From a virus (lineage: Duplodnaviria; Heunggongvirae; Uroviricota; Caudoviricetes): 10,715 nt of DNA. Below are positions 1-10,715 of this stretch, piece after piece. The stretch is from positions 1 to 10,715 of IMG/VR virus record IMGVR_UViG_2636415418_000006, one strand, 5' to 3'. Made by a program: the position numbers and the translations under genes. The notes under the pieces are model-generated. The model was not told the origin of the DNA and did not search any database. It saw only the letters and a program-made list of their open reading frames with translations. Positions within the stretch are counted from its first letter, which is position 1, and the number at the start of each line of letters is the position of its first letter.

Positions 1-633
1 TTATATTAATTCGTATAATTTGGCGTAGTCGATAAGCTCTACAATTGAATGCAAACCTAGCTTGCCATAAATATTAGATTTATGCGCACTAACTGTTTTA
101 TTGCTAAGTAATAACTTATCGGCAATTTCTTTATTAGATAATCCGCTAACCAGATAACGTAATATGGTCACTTCACGATTAGATAGCACAGTGATCGTTG
201 AACTATTCGTACTACATTTATTGCTTTTTATATAGTTAAGCGTTTCGCTAGGAAAAAACGTGTATCCGGAGAGGATCATCTGAACGGCATGAAAAATATC
301 ATTCTGATCATTGCATTTACTGACAAAACCGTTAGCACCAGCTTGTATCGCTCTGCCAGCATAAAAGCATTCTGATTTCGATGATAAAAATAACACTTTC
401 ACTGTGCTCTGGATTTGTTTGATCCTTTTCAGGAAGGTAAAACCGTCTGTTCCGGGCAAGTCTATATCCATAATGATTAAATCAACAGGACGGGTTCGGA
501 GATAATCGATGGTTATGCGGTAATCATCCGTTTTCAGGACAATCTGCAATTCACTGTTTTTTTGCAACAGAACTTCAATAGACATTCTGATGATAGGATG
601 AGTATCCATAATGATCACCGACGTTGGTTTCAT
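1..633 (-). CDS. fimZ: LuxR/NarL-family two-component response regulator FimZ (receiver domain plus C-terminal HTH)
   Basis: The minus-strand ORF 1..696 translates to a protein that matches, from MKPTSVIIMDTHPIIR onward, my recollection of E. coli FimZ (210 aa). The ATG at 631-633 gives exactly 210 codons; the ORF-track start at 696 is probably an upstream in-frame ATG. The stop codon sits at 1-3. Confidence 0.88.
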   Translation of the reverse strand: MKPTSVIIMDTHPIIRMSIEVLLQKNSELQIVLKTDDYRITIDYLRTRPVDLIIMDIDLPGTDGFTFLKRIKQIQSTVKVLFLSSKSECFYAGRAIQAGANGFVSKCNDQNDIFHAVQMILSGYTFFPSETLNYIKSNKCSTNSSTITVLSNREVTILRYLVSGLSNKEIADKLLLSNKTVSAHKSNIYGKLGLHSIVELIDYAKLYELI

Positions 634-816
634 AGTTACCAGTCTCATAGGAGCGGACAATTTTCCGTTAGGGCGGTAAATTGTACTTTGATACATGAAA
701 ATACGGGTTTTCTTGATTCAGACGCGCAGCGGTGTGCGTTTGTTTGCCACTATAGCGAAATAAATCAGAAAATCAGACGCGGTCGTTCACTTGTTCAGCA
801 ACCAGATCAAAAGCCA

Positions 817-844
817 TTGACTCAGCAAGGGTTGACCGTATAAT
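817..844 (+). promoter_or_regulatory. Sigma70 promoter for argU tRNA: -35 TTGACT (817-822), 16-nt spacer, -10 TATAAT (839-844), GC-rich discriminator
   Basis: Both hexamers match consensus exactly, with a 16-bp spacer, and sit about 30 nt upstream of the mature tRNA 5' end. The GC-rich discriminator tcacgcg after the -10 is typical of stringently controlled tRNA promoters. Confidence 0.65.
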
Positions 845-875
845 TCACGCGATTACACCGCATTGCGGTATCAAC

Positions 876-952
876 GCGCCCTTAGCTCAGTTGGATAGAG
901 CAACGACCTTCTAAGTCGTGGGCCGCAGGTTCGAATCCTGCAGGGCGCGCCA
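876..952 (+). tRNA. argU: tRNA-Arg (anticodon UCU, 910-912), 77 nt with encoded CCA; attachment site of the prophage
   Basis: The sequence folds as a cloverleaf: acceptor stem GCGCCCT/AGGGCGC, D-arm, anticodon stem CGAC/GTCG with loop CTTCTAA, T-arm GCAGG-TTCGAAT-CCTGC, discriminator G and CCA at 950-952. It matches my recollection of E. coli argU, the known DLP12 integration site. Confidence 0.92.
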
Positions 953-967
953 TTACAATTCAATCAG

Positions 968-1360
968 TTACGCCTTCTTTATATCCTCCATAATTCCAGA
1001 GTGGGACATATTTGGGACATTATCACCAAAAATGTCGTCTATTTTCCTCGCATGCTCTGTCAAATGATTAGGCGCAAGGTGAGCATACCTACGAACCATT
1101 TCTATGGACTCCCATCCGCCCATTTCCTGAAGCACTGATAATGGGACGCCTGACTGAATCAGCCAGCTTGCCCAGGTGTGTCTGAGGTCATGGAAACGGA
1201 AATCTTCAATTCCTGCACGACGACAAGCTGATAGCCATGATGTCTTGCTGTCGATGCGCATCTTCCTGACCGCAGGCGTTGATGTTCCATCTGCTCGCTT
1301 AGCCGCCTTGGTATGTACAAACACCCATTTGTGATGCTTGCCTATTTGATCACGCAACAC
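968..1360 (-). pseudogene. intD: Tyrosine integrase, C-terminal catalytic fragment only (about 130 aa; N-terminal two thirds deleted)
   Basis: The ORF carries the integrase catalytic signatures HDLRHT (His-x-x-Arg box) and RRYAHL (catalytic Tyr region). It ends 16 nt from the tRNA 3' end, as expected for a tRNA-targeting integrase. A full-length integrase would be about 390 aa, but the 5'-truncated exo fragment sits directly upstream, so the N-terminus and xis are gone. The intD symbol is by position and analogy to K-12. Confidence 0.75.
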
Positions 1361-1397
1361 TTTACAGGCGGTACCCGGATATTATCGTGAGGATGCG

Positions 1398-1934
1398 TCA
1401 TCGCCATTGCTCCCCAAATACAAAACCAATTTCAGCCAGTGCCTCGTCCATTTTTTCGATGAACTCCGGCACCATCTCGTCAAAACTCGCCATGTACTTT
1501 TCATTCCGCTCAATCACGACATAATGCAGGCCTTCACGCTTCATGCGCGGGTCATAGTTGGCAAAGTACCAGGCATCTTTTCGCGTCACCCACATGCTGT
1601 ACTGCACCTGGGCCATGTAAGCCGATTTTATTGCCTCGAAACCACCGAGCCGGAATTTCATGAAATCCCGGGAGGTAAACGGGCATTTCAGTTCAAGGCC
1701 GTTGCCGTCACTGCATAAACCATCGGGAGAGCAGGCAGTGCGCATATTTTCGTCGCGATAGATGATCGGGGATTCAGTAACATTCACGCCGGAAGTGAAT
1801 TCAAACAGGGTTCTGGCGTCGTTCTCGTACTGTTTTCCCCAGGCCAGCGCCTTAGCATTAACTTCCGGAGCCACACCGGTGCAAACCTCAGCCAGCAGGG
1901 TGTGGAAGCCACGGTGCAATCTGGAATAACCCAC
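1398..1934 (-). pseudogene. exo: Lambda-type exonuclease (Exo/YqaJ family), 5'-truncated: the C-terminal ~170 aa are conserved and the native stop is retained
   Basis: From [37 protein letters not shown] to the terminal GFVFGEQWR the translation is near-identical to lambda Exo as I recall it. The first ~55 lambda codons are missing, and the ORF-track N-terminus MGYSRLHRG is non-homologous junction sequence. Homology begins near position 1907. Confidence 0.8.
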
Positions 1935-2254
1935 CGTACAGCAATATCAGGCCGTGGGTGGAAAAAGCCGCTGAGCAGTGCATACAACAGCGACAGACGG
2001 TAGTTATGCTTGTGCCAGAGGATATGTCAGTCGGATGGTTCAGCAAGGCTCTGGAGAGTGTCGACGAAGTTCGCATTATCACTGATGGACGGATTAATTT
2101 TATCGAACCATCGACAGGGCTGGAGAAGAAGGGAAACAGCAAAGGCTCCATGCTGCTGATTTGGCGACCGTTCATCAGTCCTCGACGGATGTTTACTACC
2201 GTATCCAAAGCGGCATTGATGGCGTTCGGGCAGGGCGTCAGGAGGGCGGCATGA
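1922..2254 (+). pseudogene. Phage DNA N6-adenine methyltransferase-like fragment (5'-truncated; begins at the NPPY catalytic motif)
   Basis: The frame containing ORF 1958..2254 stays open upstream to 1862 and encodes W-N-N-P-P-Y-S at 1922-1942, the [DNS]PP[YFW] motif IV of amino-methyltransferases. This is followed by VVMLVPEDMSVGWF and [11 protein letters not shown], which resemble the conserved C-terminal blocks of phage Dam-type enzymes. Sequence upstream of the motif is antisense exo, so the gene is cut at a deletion junction. The stop overlaps the ninE start in an ATGA arrangement (2251-2254). Confidence 0.4.
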
Positions 2255-2427
2255 GGCGACAGCGACGAAGTTTCACCGACATCATCTGCGAAAACTGCAA
2301 ATACCTTCCAACGAAACGCTCCAGAAATAAACGCAAGCCAATCCCAAAAGAATCTGACGTAAAAACCTTCAATTACACAGCTCACCTGTGGGATATCCGG
2401 TGGCTAAGATATCGTGCGAGGAAATGA
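2251..2427 (+). CDS. ninE: NinE family protein (58 aa)
   Basis: [58 protein letters not shown] matches lambda/DLP12 NinE as I recall it. A GGAGGG Shine-Dalgarno lies at 2241-2246. The ORF-track entry 2161..2427 is the same frame extended upstream. Confidence 0.85.
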
Positions 2428-2771
2428 CAATGGATTATTCACAGTTAAGTGATTTTGAAATTAACAGAATGGTAGGAGACATAATTTTTAAAGGCCTTTG
2501 GGCAAGTAAACCGGAAACATCAGGGAATAACACCAACAAATGGTATTACGGAAATGCTGATACAACTTTTGAGCCATTAAATCATTTGCCTGACTACTGC
2601 AATGATCCGAGCGCTTCATGGCCGATTATTGAGAAATACAGGATTTCTATCTTAGACCAGTTAACTGAATGGTGTGTGGATGCAAAAGGCGTAAGCCCAA
2701 TATTTGATACCAGACCTCTCCGCGCCGCCATGATTGTCTTTCTCCTGATGCAGGAGGCCAATAATGCTTAG
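2424..2771 (+). CDS. Hypothetical nin-region phage protein (115 aa; possibly DUF2591/NinX-like)
   Basis: The ATG at 2424 overlaps the ninE stop (ATGA) and is preceded by a GAGGAA Shine-Dalgarno at 2417-2422, which suggests translational coupling. It has an acidic, Trp/Tyr-rich globular sequence. The family assignment is a weak recollection only. Confidence 0.6.
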
Positions 2772-2981
2772 CCCATCTCAATCCCTTCAATACCTGAAAG
2801 GAAGCATAGAGCGGGCTTCAATGTGCACAGAGTGGATTCTATCTAGGTTTAGCGCATACAGAAGATTGCCGGTAAAGGGCATGCCAAGCAAGTCGATGCT
2901 GCATATGCAAAAGAATGCGCGTTGGAAGGTATGGCGAGAACGCAGGTTATCTGGCTGAAAGAGGGGGTAATTAAGGCGTGA
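2764..2981 (+). pseudogene. Chimeric remnant: ninF-like 5' end (about 20 codons) fused out of frame to the 3' end of a ybcO-like (DUF1364) gene
   Basis: Frame 1 starts [18 protein letters not shown], which matches the lambda NinF N-terminus as I recall it, and then diverges. Frame 3 from about 2853 encodes [38 protein letters not shown], which resembles the YbcO C-terminus and ends in a GTGA overlap with the rusA start. Neither part has a complete reading frame. Confidence 0.45.
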
Positions 2982-3340
2982 ATACTTACCACATCACACT
3001 ACCCTGGCCGCCGAGCAATAACCGCTACTACCGCCATAATCGAGGGCGCACGCACGTCAGCGCAGAGGGGCAGGCATACCGCGATAACGTCGCCCGAATC
3101 ATTAAAAACGCAATGCTGGATATCGGCCTGGCTATGCCTGTGAAAATCCGCATTGAGTGCCACATGCCGGATCGCCGTCGCCGTGACCTGGATAATCTGC
3201 AAAAAGCCGCTTTTGACGCACTCACTAAAGCAGGTTTCTGGCTGGATGATGCTCAGGTCGTTGATTACCGCGTTGTGAAGATGCCTGTTACCAAAGGTGG
3301 GAGGCTGGAACTGACCATCACCGAAATGGGGAATGAATGA
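2978..3340 (+). CDS. rusA: Holliday-junction resolvase RusA (120 aa), GTG start
   Basis: The translation [44 protein letters not shown]...[11 protein letters not shown] is essentially identical to E. coli RusA as I recall it, full length. Confidence 0.9.
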
Positions 3341-3477
3341 TGTTTGAGTTTAATATGGCAGAACTTCTTCGCCACCGCTGGGGGCGTCTGCGCTTATATC
3401 GTTCCCCCGGTTCTGTTTTGACCGATTACCGAATACTGAAGAATTACGCCAAAACCCTGACAGGAGCAGGAGTATGA
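3337..3477 (+). CDS. ylcG: Small protein YlcG (46 aa), absent from the supplied ORF track
   Basis: The ATG at 3337 overlaps the rusA stop (ATGA). The translation [46 protein letters not shown] matches my recollection of DLP12 YlcG, and the gene sits in the same place as in K-12, between rusA and quuD. Confidence 0.6.
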
Positions 3478-3562
3478 AGTCAGAGATAACAATCAACTAA
3501 TACTGTTTTGTTGATTTTTGCTTGTAATTGGCGTTCTGGCCTGATTTTTGTGGAGTAAGTTG

Positions 3563-3946
3563 ATGCGTGATATTCAGATGGTTCTTGAGCGTTGGGGAGC
3601 GTGGGCGGCTAATAATCATGAAGATGTGACCTGGTCGTCCATTGCCGCCGGTTTTAAGGGATTAATTACTTCAAAAGTAAAATCTCGCCCGCAATGTTGT
3701 GACGATGACGCGATGATTATTTGCGGGTGCATGGCCCGTCTGAAAAAGAACAACAGCGATTTGCACGATTTATTAGTAGATTATTATGTAGTCGGTATGA
3801 CATTCATGTCACTGGCAGGTAAGCATTGCTGCTCTGATGGTTATATCGGGAAAAGGTTACAGAAGGCTGAGGGCATAATTGAAGGGATGTTAATGGCATT
3901 AGATATCCGGTTAGAGATGGATATCGTTGTTAATAACTCTAATTAA
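3563..3946 (+). CDS. quuD: Late-gene antitermination protein Q homolog (127 aa)
   Basis: [34 protein letters not shown]...DIVVNNSN matches DLP12 QuuD as I recall it. A GGAG Shine-Dalgarno lies at 3552-3555. The ORF-track start at 3548 is an upstream TTG in the same frame. Confidence 0.88.
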
Positions 3947-3979
3947 TATGCCAGTTGTTTACTAAAAATTATTAAAAAT

Positions 3980-3997
3980 GGGGCGTTGCAACGCCCC
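3980..3997 (-). terminator. Perfect 18-bp palindrome GGGGCGTTGCAACGCCCC flanked by A/T runs; candidate terminator for nmpC (minus strand), possibly bidirectional
   Basis: The hairpin and its flanks are read directly from the sequence. On the minus strand the stem is followed by ATTTTTAAT. It lies about 140 nt downstream of the nmpC stop. Confidence 0.4.
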
Positions 3998-4085
3998 CAA
4001 AAATAAAGGGTAATATATAACAGAAGGTTTATATAGTTAGAAGCAAGGTTGTGCTCCTAAAGGAAGTGGCTTGAGGGAGCCACTT

Positions 4086-4125
4086 ATATGTTGGGGAGGC
4101 AAAGCCTCCCGCAACATATCTTTTT
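4086..4125 (+). terminator. Rho-independent terminator (about 15-bp stem with one bulge, then CTTTTT); candidate tR'-like terminator of the Q-dependent late leader
   Basis: ATATGTTGGGGAGGC-AAA-GCCTCCCGCAACATAT is followed by TTTTT at 4121-4125, about 180 nt downstream of the quuD stop. This matches the lambda Q / pR' / tR' layout. A second hairpin (AAGTGGCT/AGCCACTT) lies at 4064-4085. Confidence 0.55.
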
Positions 4126-4135
4126 CGTAATCAGA

Positions 4136-5233
4136 TTAGAACTGGTAAACCAGACCTACAGCAACGATGTCATCAGTGCTTACACCGAGTGCTTTAGTGA
4201 AGTCATTTTTGTCAAGCAGGTTGATTTTGTAATCAACGAAAGTAGACATATTTTTGTTGAAGTAATAGGTTGCACCTACATCAACATATTTGACTAAGTC
4301 CTGATCGCCCCATACTCCAAGATCCTTACCTTTAGATTGCAGGTAAGCAACGGACGGACGCAGACCGAAATCGAACTGATATTGTGCAACAGCTTCGAAG
4401 TTTTGAGCTTTATTAGCAACGAAGTGATCAGCAAATACAGTCATATTCTGGGTTTCAGAATAGGTAGTGGCCAGGTAAATGTTGTTAGCGTCATATTTCA
4501 GACCTGCGGCCCAAACTTCTGCATTTTTACCGGAAGCAAATACTTCAGGAAGAACTTTCCCTGCATTAACTTGAGTGTCGGTACGATCAGATTTCGCATA
4601 AGTTGCACCGATACCGAATCCTTCGTATTCATAGGTAGCAGAGAAACCGAAGCCATCACCGTTACCTTCGGTGTAGTTATCGAAATCGCTACGATCGTTT
4701 TTGCCTTGGTACTGAGCAGCAAAGTTCAGACCATCAACCAGACCAAAGAAGTCGTTGTTACGATAAGTTGCAACACCAGTGGTGCGACCAGTCATGAACA
4801 CATCTGTTTGGGTCCAGGTATCGCCACCGAATTCTGGCAGAACGTCAGTCCACGCACCGATGTCGTATGCTACACCGTAGTTACGGCCGTAATCGATGGA
4901 GCCGTAGTCACCGAATTTCAGGCCAGCGAAGGCAAGACGGGTTTTATCTTTGGAGGAACCTTGAGATTCAGCGCGGTTGCCTTTGAATTCATATTCCCAC
5001 TGACCGAAACCAGTCAGTTGATCGTTGATTTGGGTTTCACCTTTGAAGCCAAGACGGGCATAAGTAGTATCACCATCATCTGCATCATTAGAGGAGAAGT
5101 AGTGCTTAGCATTAACTTTCCCGTACAGATCCAGCTTGTTACTGTCTTTATTATAAATTTCAGCTGCCTGAGCAGACATCGCCATCAGTACTGATGCAGC
5201 TACAGCAGAAATTGCCACTGTTAATTTTTTCAT
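4136..5233 (-). CDS. nmpC: General outer-membrane porin of the OmpC/OmpF/NmpC family (365 aa, intact, with signal peptide)
   Basis: The signal peptide [23 protein letters not shown] is followed by AEIYNKD, and the protein ends in the typical porin C-terminal F. It is full length, unlike the IS5-disrupted K-12 nmpC, and sits antisense between Q and the lysis genes exactly as in DLP12. Confidence 0.85.
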
Positions 5234-5806
5234 CGTGAGCCCTTTTTTTTGAACTATTATTAAAAAATGATGTCACTGCGCGATAAATATTCATCTAATC
5301 AATATGATTATTTCAAGATGTAAGTTTTGGTTTCTCGTTTGATTTGTGAAGTAGATCTCTATTTTTATCTGAACTTTTTTCTATCGAATCCTATTCATGG
5401 CTCTTGGCTGAATAAAAATAAATCTATTAGCCAATTTATATTAACGGTTGTTATTTATAAGTGCTCTATGATTTGAAGGTTCAATTTAAATCGGCTAAAA
5501 ATAACACTGGGAATTATTTGTTGGTTATTTGTTGAGATTTGCTTATGTATTTGTAGTGGTGTTTTCAATACTCGGTAGCATTCTCGCAAATATCATTTAG
5601 TGGTTTACGTACGTAAAAAATTGGTTATGCTGTTAAGAGTGGTTACTTCGTCACACAGCTTAAACCCGCCGTCGAGTGGGTTTTTCCATTTTTTGAGTCT
5701 CGATATTAGCTGATAACCCAATACCTGAGTTATTCACTGACTCCGAGTCTGTTACGTTTCGTAGTATTCCCTCAATTTACACCCGCTTTGTCTGCGAGGT
5801 GGGGTT

Positions 5807-5905
5807 ATGAAATCCATGGATAAGTTAACAACGGGTGTCGCCTATGGCACCTCAGCAGGTAGTGCCGGGTATCTGCATCATCGTCTGCCTGTCATGGGCT
5901 GTTAA
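5807..5905 (+). pseudogene. essD: Class I holin (lambda S / EssD-like), N-terminal 22 codons only, then frameshifted into Rz sequence
   Basis: [22 protein letters not shown] matches the EssD/lambda S N-terminus as I recall it. After that the frame reads [10 protein letters not shown] and stops, because the DNA from about 5873 is Rz coding sequence in another frame. Confidence 0.7.
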
Positions 5906-6293
5906 TCATTACCGTGATAACGCAATCGCCTACAAAGAGCAGCGCGATAACAAGGCCAGTGAACTGGAGAAGGCGAACGCCACCATCGCTGACATGCGGA
6001 AGCGTCAACGTGATGTAGCAGAACTCGACGCAAGATACACAAAGGAGCTTGCTGATGCTAACGCGACTATCGAAAGTCTCCGTGCTGATGTTTCTGCTGG
6101 GCGTAAGCGCCTGCAAGTCGCCGCCACCTGTGCAAAGTCAACGACCGGAGCCAGCGGCATGGGCGATGGAGAAAGCCCAGGACTTACAGCAGATGCTGAA
6201 CTCAATTATTACCGTCTCCGAAGTGGAATCGACAAGATAACCGCGCAGGTTAACTACCTGCAGGAATACATCAGGACGCAATGCCTGAAATAA
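5844..6293 (+). CDS. rzpD: Inner-membrane spanin subunit Rz (i-spanin) with a chimeric N-terminus; transmembrane helix [11 protein letters not shown] retained
   Basis: From [26 protein letters not shown] to the C-terminal QCLK the protein aligns with lambda Rz as I recall it. The first ~12 codons (MAPQQVVPG) come from holin DNA read in the Rz frame. The start at ATG 5844 (or GTG 5835) is uncertain. Confidence 0.7.
6055..6240 (+). CDS. rzoD: Outer-membrane lipoprotein spanin Rz1 (o-spanin), embedded in the +1 frame of Rz
   Basis: An AAGGAG Shine-Dalgarno at 6041-6046 lies 8 nt before the ATG. The protein has a lipoprotein signal peptide with lipobox GVSAC, a proline-rich mature part ([14 protein letters not shown]) and lies wholly inside Rz. 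This is the classic embedded spanin arrangement. Confidence 0.75.
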
Positions 6294-6324
6294 TTTTTTT
6301 GCTAATCACAAAGTCCATTTAATG

Positions 6325-6349
6325 AGCCTCGCGATGCGGGGCTTTTTTT
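6325..6349 (+). terminator. Rho-independent terminator after Rz/Rz1 (8-bp stem AGCCTCGC/GCGGGGCT, loop GAT, seven T)
   Basis: Hairpin plus T-run are read directly, 32 nt downstream of the Rz stop. Confidence 0.6.
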
Positions 6350-6498
6350 ACATCTGAATTTCACAGCGCATCTCACGCGCATATTACATCACCCGAGCCT
6401 TTCAGAAAGTTGAGCCTGAGAACTGCCGTATATGGTGGCGACCATCTCGGGGCGGCTTTTCTGTGAGACAGGCTCACTTTCTAAAAGGTAAAGACGCT

Positions 6499-6987
6499 AT
6501 GAACCAATTAGAAGAAAAGCTTCAAAGAATGATTTCCTTATACAAGGAAGATAACTGCCAAAAAGTTCCTGAAAACATCGCAGAGTTAATGGAATTGGCA
6601 AGTGAATTTTCTGGCATGCTTAAGTCGTCAGGTGTTCGGTCAGCGTTCTTTGTTGAAATGCTGATGCACGGCGGACTTATGGCAACAATGAGACGTGTAA
6701 TGGAAGACCAGAGAAAAGAACCTCCTCAGGTATACGTTTTGTCATCGAAGAAAACTGGGCTAACCAAAATTGGGTATTCATCCAACATTCCACAACGCAT
6801 CAAATCGCTTGGCAACTCTGGACCAGACTGCTTGAAGCTTGAGTGCCTGATCCCTGGTGGAAGAGAAACTGAAAACATGCTTCATCGCAAATTTGCCGCA
6901 AAGAGAAAGCACGGTGAATGGTTCGCCCTGTCCAAGGATGACATTGAGGGATTGAAATCTGTAGCGATTACTTCTGATGGCTATTAA
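6499..6987 (+). CDS. T5orf172 (GIY-YIG-like) domain protein of 162 aa: helical N-terminal region of unknown function plus C-terminal T5orf172 domain; moron in the slot occupied by bor in lambda
   Basis: The C-terminal half (VYVLSSKKTGLTKIGYSSNIPQRIKSLGNSGPDCLKLECLIPGGRETENMLHRKFAAKRKHGEWFALS) follows the T5orf172/MUG113 pattern (hydrophobic-Y-V-L ... KIGyT ... R ... E ... LH ... GEWF). An AAGG Shine-Dalgarno precedes ATG 6499. The DNA is unrelated to lambda at this position. Confidence 0.7.
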   Translation: MNQLEEKLQRMISLYKEDNCQKVPENIAELMELASEFSGMLKSSGVRSAFFVEMLMHGGLMATMRRVMEDQRKEPPQVYVLSSKKTGLTKIGYSSNIPQRIKSLGNSGPDCLKLECLIPGGRETENMLHRKFAAKRKHGEWFALSKDDIEGLKSVAITSDGY

Positions 6988-7026
6988 TGCTTGTTTAGAG
7001 CAATTTTCATAACAACTCTTCATTAC

Positions 7027-7056
7027 AAAGCCCATCTACTGGTGGGCTTGATAATG
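7027..7056 (+). repeat. Hairpin AAGCCCA-(8 nt)-TGGGCTT followed by GATAATG; copy 1 of a repeated stem-loop motif
   Basis: Read directly from the sequence, 40 nt downstream of the T5orf172 stop. No T-run follows the stem. Confidence 0.4.
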
Positions 7057-7301
7057 AAACCGTGATTTACATCCCCACAATCCGGGTATGTAAAAGATAG
7101 TTCAGGCGAGAACGGATTTAACTAAATCTGTGCGCCACCAGTTAACGGCAGTACCACGAAACAACCCAAGCCAGTAAGTGGGGAAATAACACCGGCAGCC
7201 ACTGAAAGATGAACCTCCTGCCTTATGGCAAAAAAGATTCTTTGTGGTGGCGGACTGATGGAAAGACATCCTAATTTCAGCCAAACATTGAAGGAGTTGT
7301 T

Positions 7302-7373
7302 ATGTCAGCAGAAGGTTTCAATAACCCATCAAAATTCCGGGATGAGTGGGATAGCAGCGTAAAGAGTAAGTGA
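7302..7373 (+). CDS. Candidate small ORF (23 aa, MSAEGFNNPSKFRDEWDSSVKSK) with a strong Shine-Dalgarno
   Basis: A consensus AAGGAG at 7291-7296 lies 5 nt upstream of the ATG. There is no homology evidence, and the ORF is bracketed by the two repeated hairpins. Confidence 0.2.
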   Translation: MSAEGFNNPSKFRDEWDSSVKSK

Positions 7374-7383
7374 TGCCATCACA

Positions 7384-7417
7384 AAAGCCATTCCCTACAG
7401 AGTGGCTTTGATAATGG
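7384..7417 (+). repeat. Hairpin AAAGCCA-(12 nt)-TGGCTTT followed by GATAATGG; copy 2 of the repeated stem-loop motif
   Basis: It has the same architecture and the same 3' flank (GGCTT(T)GATAATG) as the hairpin at 7027-7056. Confidence 0.4.
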
Positions 7418-7665
7418 CTTATACCCTACACGGGATAACTTAACTGATATCCCTTTTAAAGGATAAAGGTATTCAAGCCTGACACATCATGCGCTGTATC
7501 GTCGCCGTATTCCAGTATTAACAGAGACCGTAGCCCGACGGGGAACTCCTTCTGCGCGAGTGTGCGGGAATAATCAAAAACGATGCACACCGGGGTTACC
7601 GGGTACACATATTTCATCATGCCAGCGAGTCCGGTTCTGGCACGGAAGAAACCGGACGTTATGAT

Positions 7666-8076
7666 TTAGTGCGGAAATATTTGTGTAGTGTTCTGAATGT
7701 TCTCAGTAAAGAGTAATGAATTATCAAAGGTATAGTAATACCTTTTGTTTTCGTGGATATTTGTAATCCATCTGAAAACCCCTGCTGTAGCAAGATTTTT
7801 CCTGTATTCGTAAAATGATAACTCTCCTGATTTGAATCCTTTTAATGTGGCTTCTATAAGGCATTTATTTTTTGAAAATCTTACATTTACAACCTTACCC
7901 TGTCCTTTTATTAAAACCGTATTATCGTTTTCAAGAACAAGATGAATATTCTCTGTGGCTAAATAGTAAATGTAATGTGAGACATTGTGACGTTTTAGTT
8001 CAGAATAAAACCAGTGATAGTTTAAATTATTTCGCACTTTATCGAATATTTGTTTAAAAATGGCAACCTGAGCCAT
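7666..8076 (-). CDS. ybcV: DUF1398-family prophage protein (YbcV-like, 136 aa)
   Basis: [17 protein letters not shown]...[24 protein letters not shown] resembles DLP12 YbcV and the equivalent lambda right-end ORF as I recall them. A GGAAGG Shine-Dalgarno precedes ATG 8076. The gene is AT-rich. Confidence 0.7.
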
Positions 8077-8133
8077 TGTAGTACCTTCCATGTGATATGA
8101 GGGTACCTAGTCTGCACGATTATCTAAATTGCT

Positions 8134-8367
8134 TCAATCTGGTCTGACCTGCTTTCTGAGCAATTCAGTAATGTCACTCTTTTCTTTGTTTGCTTCAGGC
8201 GAAACTCTTTTTTCTGAGCACAGTCTTCGGCGGCAGGCTTCAATGACCCAGGCTGAGAAGTTCCCAGACCCTTTTTGATCAAGAGCGATGTTAATTTGTT
8301 CAATCATTTGGTTAGGAAAGCGGATGTTGCGGGTTGTTGTTCTGCGGGTTCTGTTCTTCGTTGACAT
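8134..8367 (-). CDS. ylcI: Small ribbon-helix-helix-like DNA-binding protein (YlcI/DUF3950-like, 77 aa)
   Basis: The N-terminus MSTKNRTRRTTTRNIRFPNQMIEQINIALDQKGSGNFSAWVIEACRRRL has an Arg-rich beta-strand followed by helices, as in RHH proteins. Its position just upstream of cos matches DLP12 and lambda. Confidence 0.65.
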   Translation of the reverse strand: MSTKNRTRRTTTRNIRFPNQMIEQINIALDQKGSGNFSAWVIEACRRRLCSEKRVSPEANKEKSDITELLRKQVRPD

Positions 8368-8544
8368 GAGGTTGTCCCGTATTCAGTGTCGCTGATTTGT
8401 ATTGTCTGAAGTTGTTTTTACGTTAAGTTGATGCAGATCAATTAATATGATACCTGCGTCATAATTGATTATTTGACGTGGTTTGATGGCGTAGATGCAC
8501 GTTGTGACATGCAGATGATAATTATTATCATTTTGCGGGTCCTT

Positions 8545-8755
8545 TCCGGCGATCCGACAGGTTACGGGGCGGCGACCTCGCGGGTTTTTGCTATTTATGA
8601 AAATTTTCCGGTTTAAGGTGTTTCCGTTCTTCTTCGTCGTAACTTAATGTTTTTATTTAAAATACCCCCTGAAAAGAAAGGAAACGACAGGTGCTGAAAA
8701 CGAGCTTTTGGGCCTTTGTCGTTTCCTTTCTCTGTTTTTGGCCGTGGAATGAACA
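8545..8755 (+). other. Complete lambda-type cos site: cosQ side, cosN (12-nt cohesive end GGGCGGCGACCT at 8567-8578) and cosB up to the Nu1 start
   Basis: GATCCGACAGGTTACG|GGGCGGCGACCTCGCGGGTTTT...GAAAGGAAACGACAGGTGCTGAAA... is almost base-for-base the joined right and left ends of phage lambda as I recall them. Confidence 0.85.
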
Positions 8756-8944
8756 ATGGAAGTCAACAAAAAGCAGCTGGCTGACATTTTCGGTGCGAGT
8801 ATCCGTACCATTCAGAACTGGCAGGAACAGGGAATGCCCGTTCTGCGAGGCGGTGGCAAGGGTAATGAGGTGCTTTATGACTCTGCCGCCGTCATAAAAT
8901 GGTATGCCGAAATCTGGCGGATCCGGCGCGTGAGTTCACCATGA
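8756..8944 (+). pseudogene. nohD: Terminase small subunit Nu1, N-terminal 52 codons only (DNA-binding region), then junction
   Basis: MEVNKKQLADIFGASIRTIQNWQEQGMPVLRGGGKGNEVLYDSAAVIKWYAE is identical to lambda Nu1 residues 1-52. Homology stops at 8911, and the frame then reads IWRIRRVSSP and a stop. Confidence 0.85.
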
Positions 8945-9009
8945 TTCAGTCAGCACCGCTGATGCTGCTGGCTGACCCTGATGAGTTCGTGTCCGTACAA
9001 CTGGCGTAA
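8912..9009 (+). pseudogene. Major capsid protein E, last ~30 codons only
   Basis: A different frame ending at TAA 9007-9009 encodes ...REFTMIQSAPLMLLADPDEFVSVQLA, which matches the lambda gpE C-terminus as I recall it. It is joined directly to Nu1 codon 52, which implies deletion of Nu1 3', A, W, B, C, Nu3, D and most of E. Confidence 0.6.
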
Positions 9010-9011
9010 TC

Positions 9012-9036
9012 ATGGCCCTTCGGGGCCATTGTTTCT
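9012..9036 (+). terminator. Stable hairpin ATGGCCC-TTCG-GGGCCAT followed by a U-rich tract, between the E stop and FI
   Basis: A 7-bp GC-rich stem with a UUCG tetraloop, read directly. It is followed by TGTTTCTCTGTGG. Confidence 0.45.
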
Positions 9037-9050
9037 CTGTGGAGGAGTCC

Positions 9051-9449
9051 ATGACGAAAGATGAACTGATTGCCCGTCTCCGCTCGCTGGGTGAACAACT
9101 GAACCGTGATGTCAGCCTGACGGGGACGAAAGAAGAACTGGCGCTCCGTGTGGCAGAGCTGGAAGAGGAGCTTGATGACACGGATGAAACTGCCGGTCAG
9201 GACACCCCTCTCAGCCGGGAAAATGTGCTGACCGGACATGAAAATGAGGTGGGATCAGCGCAGCCGGATACCGTGATTCTGGATACGTCTGAACTGGTCA
9301 CGGTCGTGGCACTGGTGAAGCTGCATACTGATGCACTTCACGCCACGCGGGATGAACCTGTGGCATTTGTGCTGCCGGGAACGGCGTTTCGTGTCTCTGC
9401 CGGTGTGGCAGCCGAAATGACAGAGCGCGGCCTGGCCAGAATGCAATAA
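9051..9449 (+). CDS. FI: Lambda DNA-packaging/head-assembly protein FI (132 aa)
   Basis: MTKDELIARLRSLGEQLNRDVSLTGTKEELALRVAELEEELDDTDETAGQ...MTERGLARMQ is near-identical to lambda gpFI as I recall it. A GGAGG Shine-Dalgarno lies at 9041-9045. Confidence 0.88.
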   Translation: MTKDELIARLRSLGEQLNRDVSLTGTKEELALRVAELEEELDDTDETAGQDTPLSRENVLTGHENEVGSAQPDTVILDTSELVTVVALVKLHTDALHATRDEPVAFVLPGTAFRVSAGVAAEMTERGLARMQ

Positions 9450-9460
9450 CGGGAGGCGCT

Positions 9461-9814
9461 GTGGCTGATTTCGATAACCTGTTCGATGCTGCCATTGCCT
9501 GCGCCGATGAAACGATACGCGGGTACATGGGAACGTCAGCCACCATGACATCCGGTGAGCAGTCCGGTGCTGTGATACGTGGTGTTTTTGATGACCCTGA
9601 AAATATCAGCTATGCCGGACAGGGCGTGCGCGTTGAAGGCTCCAGCCCGTCCCTGTTTGTCCGGACTGATGATGTGCGGCAGCTGCGGCGCGGCGACACG
9701 CTGACCATCGGTGAGGAAAACTTCTGGATAGACCGGATTTCGCCGGATGATGGCGGAAGCTGTCATCTCTGGCTTGGGCGGGGCGTACCGCCTGCCGTTA
9801 ACCGTCGCCGCTGA
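9461..9814 (+). CDS. FII: Lambda head-tail joining protein FII (117 aa), GTG start
   Basis: MADFDNLFDAAIACADETIRGYMGTSATMTSGEQSGAVIRGVF...GRGVPPAVNRRR is near-identical to lambda gpFII as I recall it. A GGGAGG Shine-Dalgarno lies at 9451-9456. Confidence 0.88.
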   Translation: MADFDNLFDAAIACADETIRGYMGTSATMTSGEQSGAVIRGVFDDPENISYAGQGVRVEGSSPSLFVRTDDVRQLRRGDTLTIGEENFWIDRISPDDGGSCHLWLGRGVPPAVNRRR

Positions 9815-10715
9815 AAGGGGGATGTATGGCCATAAAAGGTCTTGAGCAGGCCGTTGAAAACCTCAGCCGTATCAGCAGAACGGCGGTGCCCGGTGCCGCC
9901 GCAATGGCCATTATCCTCGGTGGTTTGTTCTCCTTGTCGCAGAGCGCCGTGTCCTCACCGGCTTCCGGGAAATCCACATCTTTTTTGATTTCGCCACGCC
10001 CGCCCACCATGGTGGCAAACTCCATTAATACCGGACCGGCGGGAAACAGAAGCGATGCGCCGGCGCTGACGAGATCCATAAAACCGGCATTGCTTTCCGT
10101 CAGGGTGATAACAGCGTTCCCCCAGGCCTTCGCCAGTGGTACTGCTTTTTCCGCTGCCGATTCAAGCAGGTCAGTGGCAATATCACCCCATGAGGGTTCC
10201 CCCTGTGGGATTTCAGGTATTGCTCCAGGTGGGGGAGGAGGGGGAAGGGTGACGGCGGCCCTTGCAGCGGGCTTTCCGTTAATGTTTACATTTTCAGAAC
10301 CGGTATTGATGGCGCCGTCCGTGTCACAAAAGCTGTTTATCCATGATTCAAGCTGGTTCTGTTTCTCCTCCACATAATCACTCGCCTTATAGCTGGCATA
10401 CATCAGCGCAGGCACCAGAACCAGCGCATAAGGGCCGGTGGCGCAGGCGGCCATAATCAGGCAACCTTCTGCGATGGTCACTATCGCCCCCAGCACGGCC
10501 CCTGCCAGTGCCCCCAGAAAACTTTTATGCTGAATTTCATCGCCCAGCCTGGCGGCAGGTGGGCCGGACTTCTTTGCTGCCAGCATCTGTGCAATGGCTT
10601 TGTCGTTGGCTGCCCGTTTCATCTGGCTGGCGACCATCGCCTGCTGTGACAGCATTCGCATTGCCAGCGTACCGCCTGCGGTCGCTCCCTGTGGCCCGCC
10701 TGGTCCTTCACTCAT
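9798..10715 (-). CDS. Hypothetical membrane protein with a prePAAR-like motif (AARLGDEIQH), a two-helix hydrophobic hairpin, a PAAR-like motif (NVNINGKPAAR) and a poly-proline linker; candidate T6SS-type effector N-terminal module whose 3' end runs into antisense lambda DNA
   Basis: The long minus-strand ORF is GC-rich with E. coli-like codon usage. Residues 51-60 fit AARxxDxxxH, residues about 66-108 are hydrophobic (FLGALAGAVLGAIVTIAEGCLIMAACATGPYALVLVPALMY), and residues about 141-149 are GSENVNINGKPAAR followed by PPPPPP. The last ~40 codons (position 9912 and below) are antisense to lambda Z and FII, so the native C-terminus is missing. The start may be an internal ATG (10584-10586, MLAAKKSGPPAAR...). 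Confidence 0.5.
   Translation of the reverse strand: MSEGPGGPQGATAGGTLAMRMLSQQAMVASQMKRAANDKAIAQMLAAKKSGPPAARLGDEIQHKSFLGALAGAVLGAIVTIAEGCLIMAACATGPYALVLVPALMYASYKASDYVEEKQNQLESWINSFCDTDGAINTGSENVNINGKPAARAAVTLPPPPPPGAIPEIPQGEPSWGDIATDLLESAAEKAVPLAKAWGNAVITLTESNAGFMDLVSAGASLLFPAGPVLMEFATMVGGRGEIKKDVDFPEAGEDTALCDKENKPPRIMAIAAAPGTAVLLIRLRFSTACSRPFMAIHPPFSGDG
9826..9912 (+). pseudogene. Tail protein Z, first 29 codons only
   Basis: MAIKGLEQAVENLSRISRTAVPGAAAMAI matches the lambda gpZ N-terminus, after which the frame diverges into sequence that is antisense to the minus-strand gene. The remaining ~150 aa of the ORF-track entry 9826..10377 are not Z. Confidence 0.75.

Follow-up and report, generated by a model that had tools for sequence, protein, structure and literature searches.

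What is an intact gene for a predicted nuclease doing in a dead prophage, just behind a broken lysis cassette? The question is raised by a stretch of 10,715 nucleotides (positions 1 to 10,715 of IMG/VR virus record IMGVR_UViG_2636415418_000006; hereafter the window), in which an ATG-initiated open reading frame (ORF) on the plus strand encodes a protein of 162 amino acids (aa), named ‘GIY-YIG nuclease family protein’ in RefSeq (Table 1). An earlier sequence-only reading had claimed this ORF, which is indeed present, and had taken it for a moron gene, kept by selection in the dead prophage and perhaps serving as an anti-phage factor or a regulator. Sequence comparison indicates instead that it is a phage gene and not special to the dead prophage. 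The main new result is the slot in which it sits, where one conserved, structured leader stands before cargo genes of at least four unrelated kinds. Our preferred answer, which we hold tentatively, is that the gene encodes an active GIY-YIG nuclease, expressed chiefly from Q-antiterminated late transcription under tight control by the leader, and that this nuclease is an interchangeable effector in conflicts between mobile elements.

A GIY-YIG domain joined to an acidic helical bundle

The C-terminal half of the protein matches two Pfam families, both above their curated cut-offs: MUG113 (PF13455; E 6e-15, 56 bits against a cut-off of 22.3, aa 90-151) and T5orf172 (PF10544; E 2.8e-10, 41 bits against a cut-off of 20, aa 78-150). 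Modelled separately (aa 72-162; predicted local distance difference test score, pLDDT, 82), the domain adopts the GIY-YIG alpha/beta fold, and its top structural matches are GIY-YIG nucleases only: SLX1 and HIGLE (scores of 5.6-5.8), EF2693 and the catalytic domain of I-TevI (4.9 each), PD-T4-3, the E. coli restriction enzyme specific for 5-hydroxymethylcytosine (5hmC) (4.3), UvrC (3.7), T4 EndoII (3.4) and Eco29kI (3.3). Profile search and fold thus confirm the T5orf172/GIY-YIG assignment of the sequence-only reading, and the motifs that it quoted (VYVL, KIGYS, R100, E..LH and GEWF) are all present. Searches of the Protein Data Bank (PDB) sequences and of NCBIfam gave no match; PHROG 4284, to which no function is assigned, matches over the full length (E 9e-88). 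In an alignment of 18 full-length relatives, reaching down to 20% identity, Y79, K90-I91-G92, R100, E125, L128-H129 and E140-W141-F142 are invariant.

The residues expected to matter for catalysis can be compared with those of Odn (Gp88), the origin-directed nuclease of the Vibrio phage ICP1. Like the window protein, Odn is phage-encoded and consists of an N-terminal accessory part and a C-terminal T5orf172 domain, and its nuclease activity, which is directed against a satellite, has been proven (PMC8263062). In a profile alignment, Odn residues Y127, R148, E180 and H184 align with Y79, R100, E125 and H129, and the Odn E180A mutation abolished cleavage both in vitro and in vivo (PMC8263062). 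Judged by these residues, the window protein is very probably an active nuclease. The two proteins are nevertheless different in several respects: in Odn the N-terminus is a copy of the RepA_N DNA-binding domain of its target, whereas that of the window protein is an acidic three-helix bundle without relatives; their overall similarity is weak (hhalign probability of 35%); and they differ in host, phage type and genomic position. Work on phage T5orf172 nucleases has so far dealt almost exclusively with the Vibrio ICP1 system; the present gene adds a compact family from E. coli and Salmonella whose accessory domain is a different one and whose carriers include phages amenable to laboratory culture (HK106, Chlobot and epsilon34).

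The helical N-terminal region, which the sequence-only reading could assign to no family, resolves in the predicted structure into about 72 aa with three helices. The AlphaFold2 model (pLDDT 87) places these at residues 3-20, 23-43 and 49-71, followed by the alpha/beta domain. The isoelectric point (pI) of aa 1-72 is 5.3, against 9.4 for the nuclease domain. The segment has no Pfam or PHROG match other than its own PHROG family and no Cys/His zinc-binding motif, its model matches only generic helical-bundle folds, and its sequence diverges fast and is barely conserved across the wider family. On these properties the bundle does not look like a DNA-reading domain, and we take it to be a module for oligomerisation or for binding or sensing a partner.

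The closest relatives of the protein are encoded by phages. It is 100% identical to the product of a gene of phage Chlobot and 99.4% identical to HK106 gp64, with more distant relatives in epsilon34 gp68 and g341c gp64 (33% identity). In HK106 and epsilon34 the gene follows Rz and an annotated rho-independent terminator, and the IMG/VR relatives (87%, 49% and 30-36% identity) are without exception placed between the lysis cassette (endolysin and spanins) and the genes for the small and large terminase subunits; the leaders of these IMG/VR relatives are unrelated to that of the window, and the position is kept. Of 1.84 billion cluster representatives searched by profile, 38,349 contain the domain, whereas the full-length architecture is seen in only about 14 clusters at 50% identity. 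Measured against the allele at 87% amino-acid identity, the ratio of nonsynonymous to synonymous substitution (dN/dS) is 0.14-0.15 and equal in both halves of the gene. Purifying selection is therefore real, and it acts in the phage lineage.

The same cannot be said of selection by the host. The whole gene occurs in 80 of 5426 complete E. coli genomes, and 63 of these 80 have the remnant configuration of the window across 5600-7700, a pattern that fits recent common descent better than retention by selection. Decayed copies exist as well, and the variant and decayed alleles include IMG/VR loci L165 and L080 and clusters P0010-P0012 and P0015: 2 of 43 close IMG/VR copies have a stop at codon 25, one prophage copy is frameshifted (95 aa), and several truncated protein clusters have many members. 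The intactness seen here is accounted for by recent common descent, since the gene is nearly identical to those of Chlobot and HK106, and it is not evidence for selection by the host. The inference that the gene was kept in a dead prophage and was therefore selected is not supported by these observations, and an intact nuclease gene in such a remnant is not by itself evidence of a defence function that benefits the host.

Two variants found among the relatives may be recorded here. The representative of cluster P0002, named by a source as Salmonella, has G in place of E140. A second variant, the protein P0030, is a natural fusion of a Rha-like N-terminus with a C-terminal T5orf172 domain, the likeness to Rha having been judged by eye from the sequence alone.

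One leader and many cargos

The stretch from the terminator behind Rz to the ATG of the gene (about 6325-6500), a leader of 175 bp, is 85-94% conserved in 224 phage records, where it is followed by different genes; in the alignment, conservation extends through ATGAA and ends at the second or third codon. A pattern taken from the 3′ part of the leader retrieved at least 120 IMG/VR contigs, in which the ORF at the conserved ATG was assigned. Among the matches listed, Rha with ORF11CD3 accounts for 72 contigs, KilA-N with or without ORF11CD3 for 13, the T5orf172 family for 12 (plus one truncated copy), a longer Rha protein for five, an ANT/KilAC protein for two and a family without assignment for three. 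Across E. coli genomes and phages, the slot behind the lysis genes holds bor, iss, Rha, KilA-N, ANT, Gp49, DUF6979 or T5orf172 genes, and the variable cargo anticipated by the sequence-only reading is thus seen in the survey. Its placement of the gene at the lambda bor position also holds: the equivalent stretch of the K-12 prophage DLP12 contains borD, on the opposite strand, and by BLAST the window has no similarity to K-12 over 6104-7490.

The rha genes of phi80 and P22 resemble the window gene in occupying the same slot, behind a conserved leader (88% identity) and with the ATG at the same position, although Rha, a Phage_pRha plus ORF11CD3 protein, has no relation in sequence or fold to the T5orf172 nuclease. 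By the shared leader and the shared ATG, the alignments identify the slot as the lambdoid rha locus. The phi80 record carries the note ‘DNA synthesis inhibition in IHF- hosts’ (IHF, integration host factor) for the rha gene in this identical slot, which suggests that a slot product acts in lytic growth and is harmful if unchecked. In IHF mutants, the rha products of both phi80 and P22 prevent phage growth, as Henthorn and Friedman are said to have reported in 1995. On the 3′ side of the gene, two further blocks are conserved (Table 1), and Rha-, KilA-N- and Gp49-bearing E. coli prophages match the window between 5870 and 7467 in separate pieces. Since the leader and the downstream blocks are both conserved, the cargo can be described as a cassette that runs from 6499 to about 7130 (about 630 bp) and has recombination-friendly flanks. 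The rha slot is in this sense a defined place for finding phage conflict genes.

The slot is not the only accessory site in this region. In phage Lyz12581Vzw (Sepvirinae, L010; listed with Stx-converting phages) an antirepressor gene (788-1357) lies inside the lysis cassette, between R and Rz, and this position is a second accessory site near the rha slot.

Considering the leader itself, its most obvious elements are hairpins. The terminator at its start has a 9-bp stem at 6324-6344 with six G-C pairs and a T run behind it, and it aligns with annotated terminators in HK106, phi80 and epsilon34. A small GCGC palindrome follows, which has variants with a longer stem in two leaders (L050 and L056), and then a long imperfect hairpin. 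Folding of 6345-6510 gives a minimum free energy of -50.5 kcal/mol (z -3.75), and none of 200 shuffled sequences was as stable. With UUUUCU (6457-6462) directly behind it, the inner part of the long hairpin (6425-6456) looks like a second terminator, whilst the 3′ strand at its base pairs with the Shine-Dalgarno sequence AAAGG (about 6484-6488). In a consensus structure over 63 distinct leaders, 99.9% of cells are paired; one-sided changes all preserve the pair, and two pairs show compensatory changes. Rfam holds no family that matches the leader or the downstream blocks, including the C4/isrK-type RNAs; a weak match to Proteo-phage-1 at 7165-7200 is far under threshold. The sole match to the IHF consensus in the leader is at chance level and overlaps the ATG, so that the link to IHF known for rha is untraceable in the leader sequence.

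The separate promoter claimed by the sequence-only reading was not found. A scan of the plus strand from 6345 to 6498, in which only the sigma-70 consensus was scored, returned no promoter, and none is annotated for the leader in the records of HK106, phi80 or epsilon34. The best candidate found by hand, TTCACA-N16-TATTAC at 6360-6387, has no T at -7 and shows no conservation in other leader types. The claim that the gene is insulated by terminators holds on one side: the upstream terminator is intrinsic and strong, whereas the hairpin in the 3′ untranslated region of the cargo (Table 1), which the terminator scan did not call, has no T tract and is hence not a canonical terminator. As regards the label of moron, presence is patchy and base composition deviates (42.9% GC, against 53-57% in the neighbouring late genes and 53% in Rz), and no sigma-70 promoter of its own was found. 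Taken together, the hairpins and the missing promoter make the leader look like a silencing device, to be overcome where transcription is antiterminated and the hairpin opened, and we regard the module at 6325-6498 as a candidate cis-regulatory RNA.

An alternative start of the ORF also falls within the leader. Initiation at a GTG at 6463 would give a protein of 174 aa; this form is ruled out because single-base insertions or deletions in homologous leaders bring a stop into frame.

Possible functions of the nuclease

The analysis establishes the domain and its fold, conservation of the catalytic residues, of the slot and of the leader, and purifying selection on the gene; in the reading that we prefer, enzymatic activity, the role of the N-terminal bundle and the timing of expression are inferred. 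The gene would encode a catalytically competent endonuclease of the T5orf172 subfamily of GIY-YIG enzymes, joined to an acidic three-helix bundle that would serve oligomerisation or the sensing of a partner and not the reading of DNA. The terminator, the second terminator-like hairpin and the stem that sequesters the ribosome-binding site would keep the product off in the lysogen, with expression coming mainly from Q-antiterminated late transcription. The late transcript of P22 is known to continue beyond the right-hand end of the genome map and into the opposite end (PMC2629481). The nuclease would then act on DNA during lytic growth, in conflicts with other mobile elements, for example phages and satellites that reside in or infect the same cell. 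Whether a late gene that is potentially toxic can be gated post-transcriptionally may be tested on the shared leader.

Several observations weigh against this proposal. The second tyrosine of the YIG motif, Y93 here, may be Y, F, T, V, A or R across the family, and the alignment of 18 relatives shows no conserved Asn that could act at the metal site or in catalysis; Odn likewise departs from the canonical GIY-YIG motif (PMC8263062). Covariation lends the leader structure little support, most pairs being invariant and the search pattern having fixed part of the 3′ arm, and the leader may contain a weak promoter or one that is not of the sigma-70 type. The other cargos of the slot (Rha, KilA-N and ANT) are DNA-binding or antirepressor-type proteins and not nucleases, so the slot may select for regulators. 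The proposal names neither a DNA target nor a biological benefit, and no immunity partner is present to explain how the DNA of the element itself is spared.

A more specific version, which we consider unlikely as it is formulated, treats the rha slot as a plug-and-play cassette, in which a riboregulatory leader gates Rha, KilA-N, ANT or nuclease effectors in conflicts between phages or between phages and satellites, and in which the T5orf172 protein is a single-chain effector whose fast-evolving bundle senses or binds a rival protein and thereby licenses cleavage. A different possibility is that the gene works in the lysogen, as a single-gene restriction-like or abortive-infection nuclease expressed constitutively at a low level against incoming phage DNA; if its target were modified DNA, no immunity gene might be needed. 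Two lysogenic-conversion genes, bor and iss, hold the slot in other prophages, the GC content is low, a trait of morons, an intact gene persists in the remnant prophage of 63 genomes, and a weak match to the PADLOC candidate PDC-S57 was obtained (E 7e-6). PD-T4-3 (PDB 9u75), the 5hmC-specific GIY-YIG restriction endonuclease of E. coli O157:H7, provides a precedent with a known defence function, albeit in a protein of 248 aa with another architecture, and the PADLOC models for PD-T4-3 do not match the window protein. No model of an established system in PADLOC-DB 2.0 was matched either, and the PDC-S57 match covers the domain only (aa 73-146 against positions 3-83 of a profile of 212). The comparison with bor, borD and iss holds for the location, in that related prophages carry them in the region from Rz to the packaging genes, but those genes encode lipoproteins, lie on the opposite strand and are expressed in the lysogen under their own control, and they have neither the shared leader nor a nuclease domain, whereas the T5orf172 gene is co-oriented with the late operon. 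With no promoter found, with two terminator-like hairpins and a sequestered Shine-Dalgarno sequence upstream, with the family confined to the lysis-terminase slot of phages and not found in defence islands, and with near-identity to the Chlobot and HK106 genes accounting for the intactness, we think a defence function in the lysogen rather unlikely.

The company that the gene keeps in the slot could also be read as pointing to a regulator, in which the nuclease-like site binds DNA or a partner protein, as an antirepressor might, and does not cut. The T5orf172 domain was first defined within the Bro/KilA-N/Rha domain-swapping network and frequently co-occurs with Bro-N and KilA-N domains, and I-TevI, a nuclease, is also an autorepressor (both as reported or cited in PMC8096241). 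All the other slot cargos are members of the Bro network; Rha, KilA-N, ANT and ORF11CD3 are so described in an account whose listed Pfam families do not include T5orf172 (PMC10111431). The P0030 fusion appears to tie the nuclease domain to its Rha slot-mates through domain shuffling. This explanation seems quite unlikely to us, given that the catalytic Tyr, Arg, Glu and His are invariant over deep divergence, that the sole T5orf172 protein tested biochemically is an active nuclease (PMC8263062), and that the domesticated repressor CapR is a counterpart of the Zn-finger domain and not of the T5orf172 domain (PMC8096241). A free-standing homing endonuclease, which would cut other alleles of the rha slot and be copied in by repair from the conserved flanks, is an improbable explanation. 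T5orf172 genes are homing-endonuclease candidates at recombination boundaries and lie near terminase genes in 35% of neighbourhoods (PMC10448857), and the highly conserved flanks of the cargo would be ideal repair templates; presence is patchy, copies decay, and eight of nine intact copies of the window-type allele go with one leader type. The T5orf172 homing endonucleases of ICP1-, T5- and VpaJT-like phages share with the present gene the domain, variable presence, boundaries of recombination near terminase genes and some decay (PMC10448857). They usually carry CapR, DUF723 or DUF4397 Zn-finger domains, however, and 87% of those surveyed have such DNA-binding domains (PMC10448857), whereas the window protein has none and an acidic N-terminus. 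Moreover, those phages are lytic and hold many copies, whereas here a single copy in a temperate phage replaces another gene at a shared start codon, so that the alternative state is that other gene and not an empty site. The steady purifying selection (dN/dS about 0.15) also speaks against homing, and the position is kept even in the 30%-identity relatives with their unrelated leaders, which suggests function rather than recent invasion.

Very improbable, in our estimation, is a role as helper in DNA maturation, in which a late structure-specific endonuclease debranches concatemers or aids terminase, in the manner of the HNH protein gp74 of HK97 or of junction resolvases. The gene lies directly upstream of the packaging genes in all relatives examined, and the structure-specific SLX1 nucleases are the top structural matches. 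Such a helper would have to be dispensable, as most related phages carry Rha or KilA-N in its place; HK106 already has an HNH gene and NinG, and the nuclease gene occurs both in HK106, whose record places an HK97-type HNH gene ahead of the genome end, and in epsilon34, which is P22-like. We therefore retain, tentatively, the reading of a leader-gated nuclease of the late lytic phase.

The prophage remnant and minor features

The window is 100% identical to E. coli strain W21. It comprises the fimZ/tRNA-Arg (argU) region of the E. coli chromosome followed by a defective lambdoid prophage of the DLP12 type. The left part of the prophage contains fragments of integrase, exonuclease and methylase genes and then ninE, ninX, rusA and quuD; an intact nmpC-like porin gene, the broken lysis cassette and the T5orf172 gene come next. 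On the 3′ side of the latter lie DUF1398 (ybcV-like) and YlcI genes on the opposite strand, followed by a truncated Nu1 gene, FI and a head-tail joining gene, the remainder being cut off by an Rhs/VgrG island. Rz is the last lysis gene and forms the upstream boundary of the slot. At about 5835-5871 the lysis cassette is broken: the start of the holin gene essD runs into Rz near 5871, and the endolysin gene that K-12 DLP12 possesses has been deleted; this configuration is common to 63 complete E. coli genomes. Coordinates of the features are collected in Table 1.

Table 1. Features of the slot, its leader and its cargo, in window coordinates
Feature	Position	Strand	Basis
Rz spanin gene, with Rz1 embedded at 6049-6240	5835-6293	+	Pfam Phage_lysis, E 2e-39; RefSeq annotation; BLAST against K-12 DLP12
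Intrinsic terminator, hairpin GAGCCTCGC/GCGGGGCTT then T7; start of the conserved leader module	6324-6350	+	Terminator scan
Small GCGC...GCGC palindrome/hairpin	6366-6380	+	RNA fold; all four pairs kept in 63 distinct leaders
Long imperfect leader hairpin	6397-6489	+	RNA fold; consensus structure from 64 leaders
Coding sequence, 162 aa, T5orf172/GIY-YIG nuclease family protein (WP_016245257.1), slot cargo	6499-6987	+	ORF call; Pfam; RefSeq; PHROG; phage homologues
N-terminal domain, aa 1-72, acidic three-helix bundle	6499-6714	+	Predicted structure
T5orf172/MUG113 (GIY-YIG) domain, aa 76-155	6724-6963	+	Invariant residues (see text)
7-bp hairpin (AAGCCCA/TGGGCTT) behind the cargo, in its 3′ untranslated region	7029-7050	+	Read from sequence
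Downstream flank block	7131-7270		95-99% conserved; BLAST to HK106, epsilon34, Chlobot and IMG/VR loci
Second downstream flank block	7400-7467		95-99% conserved with HK106, epsilon34, Chlobot and IMG/VR relatives

A few further observations concern the surroundings of the slot. The nmpC-like porin gene (4136-5233, minus strand), which lies between Q and the lysis genes, is intact and encodes 365 aa, whereas the K-12 copy is split by IS5. At the right end, behind the head-tail joining gene, a fragment of an Rhs-family gene (9798-10715, minus strand) terminates the arm of the prophage; in strain W21 this fragment is followed by DcrB-related and VgrG genes, so that the phage remnant borders on a type VI secretion island. 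The downstream blocks contain small ORFs without a PHROG match, for example those on the minus strand at 7102-7284 and 7456-7620, which are both annotated as hypothetical in Chlobot. An ORF of 23 aa on the plus strand (7302-7373; MSAEGFNNPSKFRDEWDSSVKSK) has a strong GAAGGAG ribosome-binding site and a hairpin behind it, and matches no family. Similar hairpins occur at 7028-7056 (AAGCCCA..TGGGCTT) and 7385-7416 (AAGCCA..TGGCTT), each followed by GATAATG, and may represent a repeated element or a processing site.

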